A DNA stretch of 8,576 nt from a virus (lineage: Duplodnaviria; Heunggongvirae; Uroviricota; Caudoviricetes). The position numbers and the translations under genes are program-made. Position 1 is the first letter of the stretch. Each line of letters opens with the position of its first letter. Under the pieces are notes generated by a model. That model was given only the letters and a program-made list of their open reading frames with translations, ran no database searches and was not told the DNA's origin. The DNA lies in IMG/VR virus record IMGVR_UViG_2778261083_000006; one strand, written 5' to 3'. Below, piece after piece: positions 1,051-8,525 of the stretch.

Positions 1051-1344
1051 TTAGCCAATCCTTTTCGCGGAGTGGTTGGACTCTGTTGACTCTGGCCCAA
1101 TGTGCGCGAGAGCCGGTGCGATTTGTCCTGCGTCCGGCGCGGTTTTATCTGTCATAAGCCATAGAGCATATTTTTGGAATGTGGGATGCATAGTGATTTT
1201 TAGCAAAGCTGTGCCACCGGGTTCAAAGTTTCCTCCTTCATATTTTTTAAGTGTGCTTAGCGGTAACTCTATGATTTCACAGAATTTTGATTGGCTTAGC
1301 CCTTCAGCCTCACGCAAGGCCTTAATCTTTTCGCTTAATTTCAT
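1051..1344 (-). CDS. C: Immunity repressor, HTH (P2 C-like)
   Basis: 97 aa; N-terminal HTH-like segment (LSEKIKALREAEGLSQSKFCEII); lies immediately upstream of int on the same strand and divergent from cox, as in P2-type phages. Confidence 0.8.
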   Translation of the reverse strand: MKLSEKIKALREAEGLSQSKFCEIIELPLSTLKKYEGGNFEPGGTALLKITMHPTFQKYALWLMTDKTAPDAGQIAPALAHIGPESTESNHSAKRIG

Positions 1345-1403
1345 TTGACATGGTGCCTATATAGGGACTAAATTCCCTCAAAACTGGAACCTATATAGGT
1401 TCC
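1345..1403. promoter_or_regulatory. Lysis/lysogeny switch region: candidate early promoter (-35 TTGACA 1345-1350, -10 TAAATT 1369-1374) with two copies of the palindrome CCTATATAGG (1356-1365 and 1390-1399) as candidate repressor operators
   Basis: Perfect -35 hexamer; the same 10-bp perfect palindrome occurs twice, 34 bp centre to centre, on either side of the -10. The second copy sits in an 18-bp perfect palindrome GGAACCTATATAGGTTCC (1386-1403); an AGGGA/TCCCT dyad (1363-1378) overlaps the -10. Confidence 0.6.
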
Positions 1404-1465
1404 ATTGATTTGAGAATAAACCAGCGTCTAAACGGTTTTGAGTGGTTTAGAAAGGGCTGGATCCT

Positions 1466-1753
1466 ATGAGGGTACCATATATGGACGCTGAAAATTATGT
1501 GATTCAGTATCCGCTTGATGCGGTTCATGTGGATAAATTTGCTGATTTATTAGGGAAGCCAAAGACAGCCGTCAGTGAAATGGTGAAGGCAAATAAATTA
1601 CCAATTATTGAATTGCGTGATCCTTGCAAACCGAAGGCTCGTGCCGGTGAAAAATGGGTTTTCATTCCTGAGTTTAATCGCGCTGTACGTGAGGCGTTTT
1701 ATAACCGACCGGTTGAACAGCGTGATGCATGGCTTTTGTGGATGGGGTTGTGA
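1466..1753 (+). CDS. cox: Cox-like excisionase / transcriptional regulator
   Basis: First gene of the rightward operon, about 90 aa, with wide sequence similarity to P2 Cox as I recall it. Alternative start at ATG 1481 (90 aa) has a GAGGG Shine-Dalgarno. Confidence 0.75.
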   Translation: MRVPYMDAENYVIQYPLDAVHVDKFADLLGKPKTAVSEMVKANKLPIIELRDPCKPKARAGEKWVFIPEFNRAVREAFYNRPVEQRDAWLLWMGL

Positions 1754-3509: not shown

Positions 3510-5784
3510 AGCCTCCGGGCGTTTTGTCCCTCCGTCAGCATTTGCCGCAGGCACCGGTAAGGCGTTTACCGGTGCTTATGCATGGAACGCGCCACGCGAG
3601 GCCGTCGGGCGGGAAAGACCCCTTACACGTGACGAGATGCGTCAGGTGCAAGGTGTTTTATCCACGATTAACCGCCTGCCTTACTTTTTGCGCTCGCTGT
3701 TTACTTCACGCTATGACTACATCCGGCGCAATAAAAGCCCGGTGCACGGGTTTTATTTCCTCACATCCACTTTTCAGCGTCGTTTATGGCCGCGCATTGA
3801 GCGTGTGAATCAGCGCCATGAAATGAACACCGACGCGTCGTTGCTGTTTCTGGCAGAGCGCGACCAGTATGCGCGCCTGCCGGGGATGAATGACAAGGAG
3901 CTGAAAAAGTTTGCCGCCCGAATCTCATCGCAGCTTTTCATGATGTATGAGGAACTCTGCGATGCCTGGGTGGATGCGCATGGCGAAAAAGAATCGCTGT
4001 TTACGGATGAGGCGCAGGCTCACCTGTATGGTCATGTTGCTGGCGCTGCACGTGCTTTCAATATTTCCCCGCTTTACTGGAGAAAATACCGTAAAGGGCA
4101 GATGACCACGAGGCAGGCATATTCTGCCATTGCCCGCCTGTTTAACGATGAGTGGTGGATTAGTCAGCTTAAAGGCCAGCGTATGCGCTGGCATGAGGCG
4201 TTACTGATTGCTGTCGGGGAGGTCAATAAAGACCGTTCACCTTATGCCAGTAAACATGCCATTCGTGATGTGCGTGCGCGCCGCCAGGCAAATCTGGAAT
4301 TTCTTAAATCGTGTGACCTTGAAAACAGGGAAACCGGCGAGCGCATCGACCTTATCAGTAAGGTGATGGGCAGTATTTCTAATCCTGAAATTCGCCGGAT
4401 GGAGCTGATGAACACCATTGCCGGTATTGAGCGTTACGCCGCCTCAGAGGGTGATGTGGGGATGTTTATCACGCTTACCGCGCCGTCAAAGTATCACCCG
4501 ACACGTCAGGTTGGAAAAGGCGAAAATAAAACCGTCCAGCTTAATCACGGCTGGAATGATGAGGCATTTAATCCAAAGGATGCGCAGCGTTATCTCTGCC
4601 GTATCTGGAGCCTGATGCGCACGGCATTCAAGGATAATGATTTACAGGTCTACGGTTTGCGTGTCGTCGAGCCACACCACGACGGAACGCCGCACTGGCA
4701 TATGATGCTTTTTTGTAATCCACGCCAGCGTAACCAGATTATCGAAATCATGCGTCGCTATGCGCTCAAAGAGGATGGCGACGAAAGAGGAGCCGCGCGA
4801 AACCGTTTTCAGGCAAAACACCTTAACCGGGGCGGTGCTGCGGGATATATCGCGAAATACATTTCAAAAAATATCGACGGCTATGCACTGGATGGTCAGC
4901 TCGATAACGATACCGGCAGACCGCTGAAAGATACTGCGGCGGCTGTTACCGCATGGGCGTCAACGTGGCGCATCCCGCAATTTAAAACGGTTGGCCTGCC
5001 GACAATGGGAGCTTACCGTGAGCTACGTAAATTGCCTCGCGGCGTCAGCATTGCTGATGAATTTGACGAACGCGTGGAGGCTGCACGCGCCGCCGCAGAC
5101 AGTGGCGATTTTGCGTTGTATATCAGCGCGCAGGGCGGGGCAAATGTCCCGCGCGATTGTCAGACTGTCAGGGTCGCCCGTAGCCCGTCGGATGAAGTTA
5201 ACGAGTACGAGGAAGAAGTCGAGAGAGTGGTCGGCATTTACGCGCCGCATCTCGGCGCGCGTCATATTCATATCACCAGAACGACGGACTGGCGCATCGT
5301 GCCGAAAGTTCCGGTCGTTGAGCCTTTGACTTTAAAAAGCGGCATCGCCGCGCCTCGGAGTCCTGTCAATAACTGTGGAAAGCTCACCGGCAGTGATACT
5401 TCGTTACCGGCTCCCACACCTTATGAACATGCCGCAGCCGTGCTTAATCTGGTTGATGACGGTGTTATCGAATGGAATGAGCCAGAGGTCGTGAGGGCGC
5501 TCAGAGGTGCATTAAAACACGAACTGAGAACACCAAATCGTCAGCAGAGAAACGGAAGCCCGTTAAAACCACATGAAATAGCGCCATCGGCCAGACTGAC
5601 CCGGTCGGAACGAACGCAAATTACCCGTATCCGCGTTGACCTTGCTCAGAACGGTATCAGGCCGCAGCGATGGGAGCTTGAGGCGCTGGCGCGTGGCGCG
5701 ACCGTAAATTATGACGGGAAAAAATTCACGTATCCGGTCGCTGATGAGTGGCCGGGATTCTCAACAGTAATGGAGTGGACATAA
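3499..5784 (+). CDS. A: Rolling-circle replication initiator / replication endonuclease (P2 gene A protein), HUH superfamily
   Basis: 761 aa from ATG 3499 (MAVKASGRF...). HUH motif H-W-H at 4693-4701 in VEPHHDGTPHWHMMLF; paired tyrosines in GYIAKYISKN at codons 450 (4846-4848) and 454 (4858-4860), the numbering of the P2 A active-site tyrosines. The track ORF from 3457 starts at an upstream TTG. Confidence 0.95.
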   Translation: MAVKASGRFVPPSAFAAGTGKAFTGAYAWNAPREAVGRERPLTRDEMRQVQGVLSTINRLPYFLRSLFTSRYDYIRRNKSPVHGFYFLTSTFQRRLWPRIERVNQRHEMNTDASLLFLAERDQYARLPGMNDKELKKFAARISSQLFMMYEELCDAWVDAHGEKESLFTDEAQAHLYGHVAGAARAFNISPLYWRKYRKGQMTTRQAYSAIARLFNDEWWISQLKGQRMRWHEALLIAVGEVNKDRSPYASKHAIRDVRARRQANLEFLKSCDLENRETGERIDLISKVMGSISNPEIRRMELMNTIAGIERYAASEGDVGMFITLTAPSKYHPTRQVGKGENKTVQLNHGWNDEAFNPKDAQRYLCRIWSLMRTAFKDNDLQVYGLRVVEPHHDGTPHWHMMLFCNPRQRNQIIEIMRRYALKEDGDERGAARNRFQAKHLNRGGAAGYIAKYISKNIDGYALDGQLDNDTGRPLKDTAAAVTAWASTWRIPQFKTVGLPTMGAYRELRKLPRGVSIADEFDERVEAARAAADSGDFALYISAQGGANVPRDCQTVRVARSPSDEVNEYEEEVERVVGIYAPHLGARHIHITRTTDWRIVPKVPVVEPLTLKSGIAAPRSPVNNCGKLTGSDTSLPAPTPYEHAAAVLNLVDDGVIEWNEPEVVRALRGALKHELRTPNRQQRNGSPLKPHEIAPSARLTRSERTQITRIRVDLAQNGIRPQRWELEALARGATVNYDGKKFTYPVADEWPGFSTVMEWT

Positions 5785-6236
5785 TGGCAAAAATTCACGA
5801 GGTAAAGCTGCACGCAAAATATTTCGACCTTGTGCTGGAAGGAAAGAAACGTGCAGAGTTCCGGAAAAATGACCGTAATTATGAGCGCGGGGACACGTTG
5901 ATTTTGTATGAATGGGTGCAGGGTGTGTATACGGGGCGAAATGTTGAAGCCCGGATAACAGATGTTACTGACCTGTCAGACTGGCTGGAAGATTATGTCT
6001 TGCTAAGTATTGAGCTGCTTAATACAGGCGCATATGAGATTGTGAACTGGAAAGAACTTAGTGAGCGTGGCCTGGTATTCAGAATTAATCATGAAATTAT
6101 GCATCAGCTCGGCCTTGCTGTTATGTATGAACCAGAGACGGGGATGTCTGGCGGGGCAATGGTTGCCACGGATGGAGCATGGAACTATTCAGATGAACAG
6201 ATGGAGCGTGCACAGCAAAACGGGTGGCTTGGATAA
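5784..6236 (+). CDS. ASCH/PUA-like (DUF3850-type) domain protein, 150 aa
   Basis: N-terminus MAKIHEVKLHAKYFDLVLEGKKRAEFRKNDRNYERGDTLILYEW fits the ASCH beta-barrel pattern (G-x-K...R...GD). ATG 5784 overlaps the A stop (TAATG) and follows GGAGTGG. The track start at 5748 is a GTG inside A. Confidence 0.65.
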   Translation: MAKIHEVKLHAKYFDLVLEGKKRAEFRKNDRNYERGDTLILYEWVQGVYTGRNVEARITDVTDLSDWLEDYVLLSIELLNTGAYEIVNWKELSERGLVFRINHEIMHQLGLAVMYEPETGMSGGAMVATDGAWNYSDEQMERAQQNGWLG

Positions 6237-6684: not shown

Positions 6685-7623
6685 ATGCCAACTGTAGTTT
6701 CACTTTTTTCTGGATGTGGTGGTTCTGATGCGGGAGTTTTGAACGCAGGTTTCAATGTGCTTATGGCAAATGATATTTTGCCTTACGCAAGGGACGTTTA
6801 CTTAGAAAACCATCCTGAAACTGACTACATTTTGGGCGATATCTCAGGGCTCCAGTCGTTCCCTTCTGCTGAGTTGCTCATCGGATGCTATCCTTGCCAA
6901 GGATTTAGTCAAGGTGGGGCAAGGAAGGCAGATAGAAAGATTAATACACTATATTTAGAGTTTGCCCGTGCTTTGAGTAAAATTAAGCCAAAAGCATTCA
7001 TTGTAGAGAATGTCTCTGGTATGGTAAGGCGTAACTTTGAGCATTTATTAAAGGATCAATTCAAAGTTTTCGAAGAAGCAGGTTATACAGTAAGCTCGCA
7101 AATTCTGAATGCGTCCCATTATGGGGTATCCCAAGATAGGAAGCGAATCTTTATCGTAGGAATACGAAAGGACTACGGTATTACATACAAATTTCCAAAA
7201 CCAACACATGGTGATGGTTTGACACCATATTCCACAATTCGTGATGCTATTGGGCATATGCCTGTTTGGCCTGTTGGCGAGTTTTATGACGCCGATTTTC
7301 ATTGGTATTATCTATCGCGAAACCGTAGGCAAGATTGGGATCAGATATCTAAAACAATTGTTGCAAATCCTAGACATATGCCTCTACATCCAATAAGTCC
7401 AACATTAGAAAAATTGGGACCTGATAAGTGGCAATTTACTTCGGATGCACCAGCTCGTAGGTTTAGCTATCGAGAGGCTGCTATTTTACAAGGTTTTGGG
7501 GATTTAATTTTCCCAGAAACTGAACGGGCTTCTATTAATATGAAATATACTGTGGTAGGTAATGCAGTACCGCCTCCATTGTTTGAGGCGGTTGCTAGAA
7601 ACCTTCCAGATTTATGGGATTAA
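6685..7623 (+). CDS. DNA (cytosine-5)-methyltransferase
   Basis: Motif I FSGCGG (6703-6720); catalytic P-C in GCYPCQGFSQGG (Pro-Cys at 6892-6897); motif VI FIVENVSGM; motif VIII SQDRKRIFIVG; C-terminal REAAILQGF and VVGNAVPPPLF. 312 aa, about 40% GC. Confidence 0.93.
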   Translation: MPTVVSLFSGCGGSDAGVLNAGFNVLMANDILPYARDVYLENHPETDYILGDISGLQSFPSAELLIGCYPCQGFSQGGARKADRKINTLYLEFARALSKIKPKAFIVENVSGMVRRNFEHLLKDQFKVFEEAGYTVSSQILNASHYGVSQDRKRIFIVGIRKDYGITYKFPKPTHGDGLTPYSTIRDAIGHMPVWPVGEFYDADFHWYYLSRNRRQDWDQISKTIVANPRHMPLHPISPTLEKLGPDKWQFTSDAPARRFSYREAAILQGFGDLIFPETERASINMKYTVVGNAVPPPLFEAVARNLPDLWD

Positions 7624-8525
7624 GCAGCGATCGCGCTGGAAGGATCAAGGATGATATCTAGATAGCTAATATTTTGACTGTGATCAATATTATCAGATGC
7701 TCTGGTTAAATTGATTAATCTTAGGCGATCAACAAAAATAGCATCGCCTAACTTATTTTTATGCGCCCACTCACCATCTATCCATCGTAGATCTTGAGGT
7801 AAGAAATAATAAGTTGCCCATCGGTGAGCTACGGGGAATTTACTGTAGAGCATCGCAGGTGAGGCCTCAAGCTGCTTCGCTTCCCACTCTTCTTGAGAAC
7901 AGCCACACTGAACAAAAGAAATAGGGATGGCATCTCGTTGATCTCCCATTGGATGCCAGGCAATTATGTCAAGGCCTCCGTCACCACTATTTCCTCGACT
8001 GAAATCTCGTTCTTTGAAGTTCGCTGTGCAACGGATATCGGAAGCAATACTCTTAAATTTATTATATAGAGTTCCAGTGTAAGGGGCCGCTTGACCACCA
8101 GAAGCCCAGCATGCTTTTATTATGCTACCGCTAGGCATTAGGCTTTCAAAAATAGGTAAACTAATTAGTTCAAAACTGCGCGTTATCTCTCTTCTGCTCA
8201 TTATGTTGACATATTTTATGTTAGCACAGATTAGTAAAGCTAAATATAGTCTTTCTAAATGTTCCAGTGGCTTTTCTGATATATCACGTAACTCTACAGT
8301 ATCGTTGTCTTCTGATAAAGTAAAAGGGTAACTATCCCCAAATAAATCAATGCGTTGTCGTATGAAGCCTATCGCATAGCTCCACTTTCTGTCAGTATAT
8401 GCTCGACTAACACTTCGTTTTGTTCTCTTGCGTACAGGCGTATCATTTTCATCATCAACATCATAAACGCCCTCTTCTTCTGCTTCATCTGTTTCAGCTA
8501 GGGAAGGTGCGAATAAGCAGGTCAT
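7620..8525 (-). CDS. Unknown protein convergent with the methyltransferase; candidate restriction endonuclease or other defence effector; may be 5'-partial
   Basis: At least 301 codons; its stop overlaps the methyltransferase stop by 4 bp (7620-7623); about 33-38% GC. The frame has no stop between ATG 8523-8525 and the window end at 8576, so the true start may lie outside the window. No motif I can assign confidently; a weak PD-(D/E)xK-like pattern (GLDIIAW ... EAK) is speculative. Confidence 0.7.
   Translation of the reverse strand: MTCLFAPSLAETDEAEEEGVYDVDDENDTPVRKRTKRSVSRAYTDRKWSYAIGFIRQRIDLFGDSYPFTLSEDNDTVELRDISEKPLEHLERLYLALLICANIKYVNIMSRREITRSFELISLPIFESLMPSGSIIKACWASGGQAAPYTGTLYNKFKSIASDIRCTANFKERDFSRGNSGDGGLDIIAWHPMGDQRDAIPISFVQCGCSQEEWEAKQLEASPAMLYSKFPVAHRWATYYFLPQDLRWIDGEWAHKNKLGDAIFVDRLRLINLTRASDNIDHSQNISYLDIILDPSSAIAA

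Follow-up and report, generated by a model that had tools for sequence, protein, structure and literature searches.

Palindromic 10-bp repeats around the early promoter as probable operators of the L-413C immunity type of P2-like phages

Operators have been mapped experimentally for three immunity types of P2-like phages: P2, P2 Hy dis and WPhi (PMC1904268). In P2 they are 8-bp direct repeats, GTTTAGAT, that lie 22 bp apart and flank the -10 (sequence annotation; PMC1904268); in P2 Hy dis, whose C repressor is 63% identical to P2 C, 8-bp operators lie 26 bp apart and flank the -35 (PMC1904268). The WPhi operators, established by mutagenesis, EMSA and SPR, are two 10-bp sites, 34 bp apart centre to centre, that flank the -10 of the early promoter Pe (PMC1904268, PMC1904263); mutation of one site is tolerated, and repression is lost only when both are mutated (PMC1904268). 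The published generalisation is that repressors of the P2 family recognise non-palindromic direct repeats (PMC2995052). The recognition helices of P2 C stand 26 Å apart, and residues Tyr31, Thr33, Ser35, Tyr36 and Arg41 have been proposed to read bases (PMC2995052). Published immunity groups have C proteins at least 95% identical inside a group (PMC3448106).

The stretch of DNA analysed here (the window, 8576 bp) holds the early and immunity region of a P2-like (Peduovirus) prophage, in the order int-C-Pe/Pc-cox-B-A. The ORF map and Pfam matches give the arrangement of a P2-type switch, with a leftward C-int operon in which C comes first and, convergent with it, a rightward Pe-cox-B-A operon. 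[quoted passage not shown] The immunity repressor gene C (1051-1344, minus strand) encodes a 97-aa helix-turn-helix (HTH) protein, as found by the ORF map, phmmer and Pfam HTH_3. The sole phmmer match of this protein in the PDB is P2 C (2XCJ/2L49; E 2e-21, residues 3-97); the gene is annotated as C or immunity repressor in L-413C and others, while the database names of the protein are generic. The Cox repressor/excisionase gene (1481-1753, plus strand) was assigned by Pfam (Phage_Cox, E 1e-23) and by the annotation of relatives. Its ORF also opens at 1466, the longest form; the ATG at 1481 is the one used in RefSeq and most phage records, gives a gene of 273 nt, the length found in WPhi, and has a better placed Shine-Dalgarno sequence. 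Genes B and then A follow 3' of cox, A matching Pfam Phage_GPA. Downstream of A, at the old/tin hotspot, lies cargo not found in P2 (5748-8525): a DUF3850/ASCH-domain protein gene (5748-6236), into which the end of A extends, a C5 cytosine methyltransferase gene (6685-7623), and a 301-aa ORF with no Pfam match (7620-8525), convergent with the methyltransferase gene and overlapping it by 4 bp. The methyltransferase gene and this ORF probably form a type II restriction-modification pair.

Between C and cox, the -35 of Pe (TTGACA, 1345-1350, plus strand) directly abuts the C start codon, the position of the annotated or published -35 of P2 and WPhi (PMC1904263). The -10 (1368-1374, plus strand) can be read as CTAAAT with a 17-bp spacer or as TAAATT with an 18-bp spacer, and aligns with the TATATT of WPhi and P37; Pe is thus near consensus, with 10 of 12 positions matching. 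The window contains exactly two copies of CCTATATAGG; they occupy 1356-1365 and 1390-1399, with 34 bp from start to start, and no other 10-mer of the window recurs within 60 bp. The first, strand-neutral copy is the core of a site that we call O1, in the spacer between the -35 and -10 of Pe; extended to 18 bp (1352-1369, GGTGCCTATATAGGGACT) it is imperfect, with 7 of 9 dyad pairs. The second copy is the centre of O2 (1386-1403, likewise strand-neutral), GGAACCTATATAGGTTCC, which is the sole perfect 18-bp palindrome within the window. On the inferred Pe transcript the O2 core would span about +9 to +19 and the 18-mer about +5 to +23. The preliminary description of this DNA had reported a 10-bp palindrome present twice within about 45 bp of the switch, which is confirmed, and had placed one copy in the promoter spacer, which is correct, and the other just downstream of the -10, which is approximate, the second core starting 16 bp past it. 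In having two short identical copies, two to three helical turns apart, that overlap Pe and bracket its -10, the window conforms to the P2-type switch; it departs from the non-palindromic direct repeats described for that type (PMC2995052), each core being a perfect palindrome. This departure bears on the proposed binding mode and leaves the homology to the P2-type switch untouched.

To assess chance, the C-cox spacer (121 bp) was shuffled 20,000 times with its dinucleotides preserved. A direct 10-mer repeat of any kind arose in 76 shuffles and a single 10-bp palindrome in 2,139, while a 10-bp palindrome occurring twice arose in none, excluding a chance origin of the repeats. Beyond O1 and O2, a search for distal copies of CCTATATAGG with up to one mismatch in the complete 32-kb genome of P24B2, a phage of the same immunity type, found none; the window has one match with two mismatches, at 7131, which is the chance level. 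A third 10-bp palindrome of the spacer region, CCATATATGG (1475-1484), overlaps the probable cox ATG (1481, preceded by GAGGG). Considered as a third operator, it is absent at the equivalent place in the sister classes described below and is treated as incidental, which by this comparison it probably is.

The C gene and switch are 99.5-100% identical to those of the Yersinia phage L-413C and of P24B2, R18C, FSL SP-004, P2_AC1 and others. Over 789 nt the window has four differences from L-413C, with the C gene identical, and none from P24B2; with C at least 95% identical and a near-identical, alignable C-cox spacer, it belongs to the L-413C type, which is not among the three whose operators have been mapped (PMC1904268). 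We put at roughly 0.85 the probability that the two CCTATATAGG elements are the O1/O2 operator pair of this L-413C-type class in the P2-like phages, a reading built from sequence comparison.

The closest characterised analogue of this switch is WPhi (immunity class III), not P2. Both have a 97-aa C and 10-bp sites spaced by 34 bp around the Pe -10, and in both the -35, TTGACA, lies directly against the C start codon; the segment between the sites, TTCCC(G)TCAAAA, is conserved. They differ in the site itself, asymmetric and directly repeated in WPhi (TATTGGTGAC) and palindromic here, and in the helix-3 signature of C, KNYESGH in WPhi and KKYEGGN in the window. Membership of the WPhi class is ruled out by a C identity of 56%, below the criterion of about 95% (PMC3448106), and by the unlike operator sequences. 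With P2 (class I) the window shares the fold and family of C and the C-int / Pe-cox-B-A layout; both have two sites that span the Pe -10, and their replication genes are nearly identical, B at 99%. It differs in C, only 43% identical, and in the sites, 8-bp repeats at 22 bp in P2, which rules out the P2 class. In the alignment with P2 C, four of the five residues proposed to read bases are changed (Tyr31, Ser35, Tyr36 and Arg41 to Leu, Lys, Lys and Asn), and Thr33 is kept. P2 Hy dis shares the two-site operator of P2 type, but site length, spacing and position around the -35 all differ, and its C is 63% identical to P2 C, against 43% for window C, so that this class is ruled out as well. Set against identities of at least 95% inside groups, the values of 56% to WPhi C and 43% to P2 C make the window a separate specificity class. 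Earlier claims that the P2 operators are direct repeats of another sequence, that the repressor is unlike P2 C and that the replication genes are held in common with P2 are all borne out; the further proposal that the palindromes are operators conferring a distinct immunity specificity is supported, as an inference from sequence, and the region is of the L-413C type, not of a characterised type with other mapped operators.

Two further kinds of repressor bear comparison. The structural relatives of P2 C include C.Esp1396I-type controllers and the 434 and P22 c2 repressors, which as symmetric dimers bind to palindromes; C.Esp1396I occupies two repeated palindromic sites, one dimer on each, and forms a tetramer (PMC2995052), which is the mode we propose for window C. 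They differ in having no sequence homology to C detectable by phmmer, in the 15-bp spacing of Esp1396I and in their other biological context. CI of phage 186, a P2-related phage with convergent promoters, likewise recognises inverted repeats, but is a 196-aa two-domain protein of another repressor family that uses distal sites and looping (PMC1904268).

A scan of IMG/VR yielded 64 loci with C proteins 59-100% identical to window C. In the alignment of these immunity regions of P2-like phages, palindromes resembling CCTAWWTAGG stand at both equivalent positions in five sister classes (L042, L066, L044, L051 and L060), whose C proteins are 64-86% identical to window C. Their O1 lies 11-12 nt from the start of TTGACA and their O2 32-34 bp further, and the remaining spacer DNA is unalignable; with the window class, dyad symmetry at both positions is thus found in six classes. 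Across classes the site type goes with the helix-3 signature of C, a comparison that is confounded by shared ancestry. L066 and L044 have the Pc/cox half of L063 and L057, yet different sites, which argues that the site type tracks C and not cox. L044, L052, L057, L058, L063 and L066 have nearly the same sequence in the right half of the C-cox spacer (…CCAGCCGCTAGAACGTTTTCAAACGGTTTAGAAAGGGCTGGATC…); such a near-identical Pc/cox half beside quite different C genes and operators points to a recombination boundary just right of O2. Direct-repeat sites are found in WPhi, L057 and P2. P37 (L004) has an inverted pair of sites, TTAATGAC / GTCATTAA, and GTTC-N7-GAAC dyads occur in other P2-type classes (loci among L049-L056 and L063-L068), and with these the operator arrangements of the family are more varied than the description as direct repeats.

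How the sites are read is a separate question. We hold it an even bet that the C repressors of the window class and of five or more sister classes form a subfamily in which every CCTAWWTAGG palindrome is read as a true dyad, by one symmetric dimer. The alternative is that C reads two asymmetric half-sites in direct repeat, as in P2 and WPhi, and that the palindromy is incidental. The geometry, identical to that of the WPhi direct repeats (PMC1904268), is in keeping with such half-sites, as are the O1 flanks, which are symmetric only in part (7 of 9 dyad pairs). Against them stand the dyads at both positions in six classes and the GTTC-N7-GAAC dyads elsewhere, and P2 C is itself a symmetric dimer that resembles binders of palindromic sites (PMC2995052). 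In the nearest sister class (L042/43, C 86% identical) each of the two sites, CCCATATAGG / CCTATATGGG, is the exact reverse complement of the other, which would not be tolerable unless each site were read symmetrically. We consider the half-site reading unlikely. If the symmetric reading is right, a single small fold would serve operators arranged as direct repeats, inverted pairs and palindromes across the P2 family, contrary to the published generalisation (PMC2995052), and the window would offer a palindromic counterpart to P2, where the puzzle is how a symmetric C dimer can read direct repeats that are themselves asymmetric.

Natural variants of the switch bear on the assignment of the two palindromes as operators. 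R18C (L070), published as a virulent or lytic P2-like phage without a genetic explanation (PMC6823313), has an identical C and only two differences from the window in 789 positions, one in each core: 1364 G>T in O1 and 1390 C>T in O2. The chance that both differences would land in the cores is 3e-4; 'virulent' is the description of its authors, who reported no test of lysogeny or immunity insensitivity (PMC6823313). L-413C (L002), a clear-plaque, lytic mutant of the temperate L-413 (PMC3448106, PMC2893161), has an intact C gene and carries 1356 C>A in the O1 core, 1402 C>A in the O2 18-mer and 1373 T>C in the -10, its fourth difference (1632) being Cox P51L. Since the -10 change and Cox P51L are also present, its lytic phenotype is not pinned on the operator changes alone; 1373 T>C as the cause is unlikely, the same change having been found in a lysogen. 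All three core mutations of the lytic phages fall in the outer CC/GG, bases that do not vary among the sister classes, and the hits in both sites of R18C and L-413C match the finding in WPhi that only double-site mutation abolishes repression (PMC1904268). Point mutations in both sites are thus a candidate genetic basis of the lytic behaviour of the two phages. HQ103 (L075), a lytic Yersinia phage, has intact operators and a 7-bp deletion (1179-1185) that frameshifts C; it would be a clear-plaque phage of the repressor-null type, unlike the putative operator mutants.

The lysogens present the opposite pattern. Of 5,426 complete E. coli genomes, 420 have a prophage of this switch type, its C gene and switch being 99-100% identical; the 71-nt switch core is that of the reference in 314 of them and has 1374 T>C in 80. 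Other haplotypes have 1351 T>C (three lysogens), 1355 G>A (two) or 1373C with 1374C (at least one). Haplotypes with intact cores cover 400 of the 420, the remaining 20 not being individually identified, and no core change was seen in the 15 variant lysogen genomes that were read directly. Neither R18C mutation, and no operator mutation of L-413C, was found in any of the 420, and none of the 420 is nearer to L-413C than the wild-type haplotype is. The two -10 polymorphisms each leave one -10 register whole when alone: 1374 T>C leaves only the register with the 17-bp spacer (CTAAAT), and 1373 T>C of L-413C only that with 18 bp (TAAACT). One lysogen, strain 41EC2 (L083), has 1373C and 1374C together, and its Pe may be crippled.

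If the palindromes are operators, the following scheme can be drawn. C, as a homologue of P2 C, is presumably a symmetric HTH dimer, and one dimer would sit on each dyad-symmetric site, probably reading the outer CC/GG and leaving the AT-rich centre uncontacted. Ten base pairs of palindrome are few for an HTH dimer whose recognition helices are spaced by 26 Å, as in P2 C, so the flanks (GGnnCC...GGnnC) may belong to the site. Two dimers about three helical turns apart would cooperate, as inferred for WPhi and P2. With O1, in the -35/-10 spacer, and O2 occupied, RNA polymerase would be excluded from Pe or trapped there, keeping cox, B and A silent. A lysogen would be immune to phages with the same operators and sensitive to P2, WPhi and P2 Hy dis. 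C may also regulate its own gene, as the weak Pc that is predicted would place O2 at about +4 to +20; this is a guess. R18C and the plague-diagnostic L-413C would on this scheme be natural double-operator (vir-type) mutants.

O2 might instead be primarily an RNA element, either an attenuator or a stem-loop at the 5' end of the Pe transcript, the Pc transcript or both. It was flagged as terminator-like in a scan, and the hairpin predicted for the plus strand has a folding energy of -11.3 kcal/mol (z -3.3), that for the minus strand one of -18.4 (z -4.3). In most classes O2 forms the centre of an extended dyad whose arms are specific to the class. An RNA role, however, leaves unexplained both O1, where the same core has no hairpin around it, and the hits of R18C and L-413C in both copies; 1390 C>T of R18C keeps a G-U pair in the plus-strand hairpin, and the O2 of WPhi, which lies inside such a dyad, has been shown to be a C-binding site (PMC1904263). 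As the primary function it is therefore very unlikely; as a second role overlapping that of an operator, the hairpin is conceivable, if on the doubtful side. The longer dyad in the window is imperfect and spans 1372-1417, with arms CTCAAAACTGGAACC/GGTTCCATTGATTTGAG. O2 is centred in, or bracketed by, a longer inverted repeat in the window, L042, L044, L046, L060, L001 and others, the arms again specific to each class: CCCTCATTGG/CCAATGAGGG in L042, TCAAAAGG/CCTTTTGA in WPhi and CCCGAAAAGG/CCTTTTCGGG in P37. The predicted hairpins of these repeats range from -11 to -25 kcal/mol, and they lie in the stretch that the inferred transcripts from Pe and Pc would have in common.

That the repeats are instead targets of Cox, which also binds the switch region in P2-like phages (PMC3936717), of IHF or of the restriction-modification system to which the C5 methyltransferase in the window would belong (6685-8525), or a chance AT-rich repeat, is the least credible reading and can be dismissed, as in natural recombinants the sites go with C and not with cox, phages that share the very same operators carry different cargo (e.g. 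P24B2), and the spacer shuffles exclude chance.

The operator pair proposed here reveals no new kind of system. The L-413C type is widespread and long deposited, distinct from P2 yet not new. The genome of phage L-413C was reportedly described by Garcia et al. 2008, and Karlsson et al. 2006 are said to have divided P2-like phages into immunity classes I-VII, of which the L-413C type is very probably one. A full-text literature search for CCTATATAGG returned only unrelated papers (MADS-box sites and similar). Two points appear modestly new, namely that the sites have dyad symmetry and that operator mutations may account for the lytic behaviour of R18C and L-413C. Immunity specificity determines whether a P2-like phage can superinfect a given lysogen, and the L-413C type is present in about 8% of complete E. 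coli genomes; its operators, if correctly assigned, would explain why R18C and L-413C are lytic despite intact repressor genes.

On the other side of the switch, the weak promoter Pc predicted for the C-int operon (1413-1441, minus strand) has a -35 of TCAAAA (1441-1436), a 17-nt spacer and a -10 of TATTCT (1418-1413). It matches the consensus at 7 of 12 positions, was found in a looser promoter scan and missed by a stricter one, and is placed like the annotated Pc of P2. Its -35 is flanked by an inverted pair, CTAAAC (1428-1433) and GTTTAG (1445-1450), which matches the P2 operator half-site GTTTAGAT at 7 of 8 bases and resembles TTAAAC in the Pc region of P2. Going by the P2 Cox-box consensus, this pair may be Cox-binding sites.
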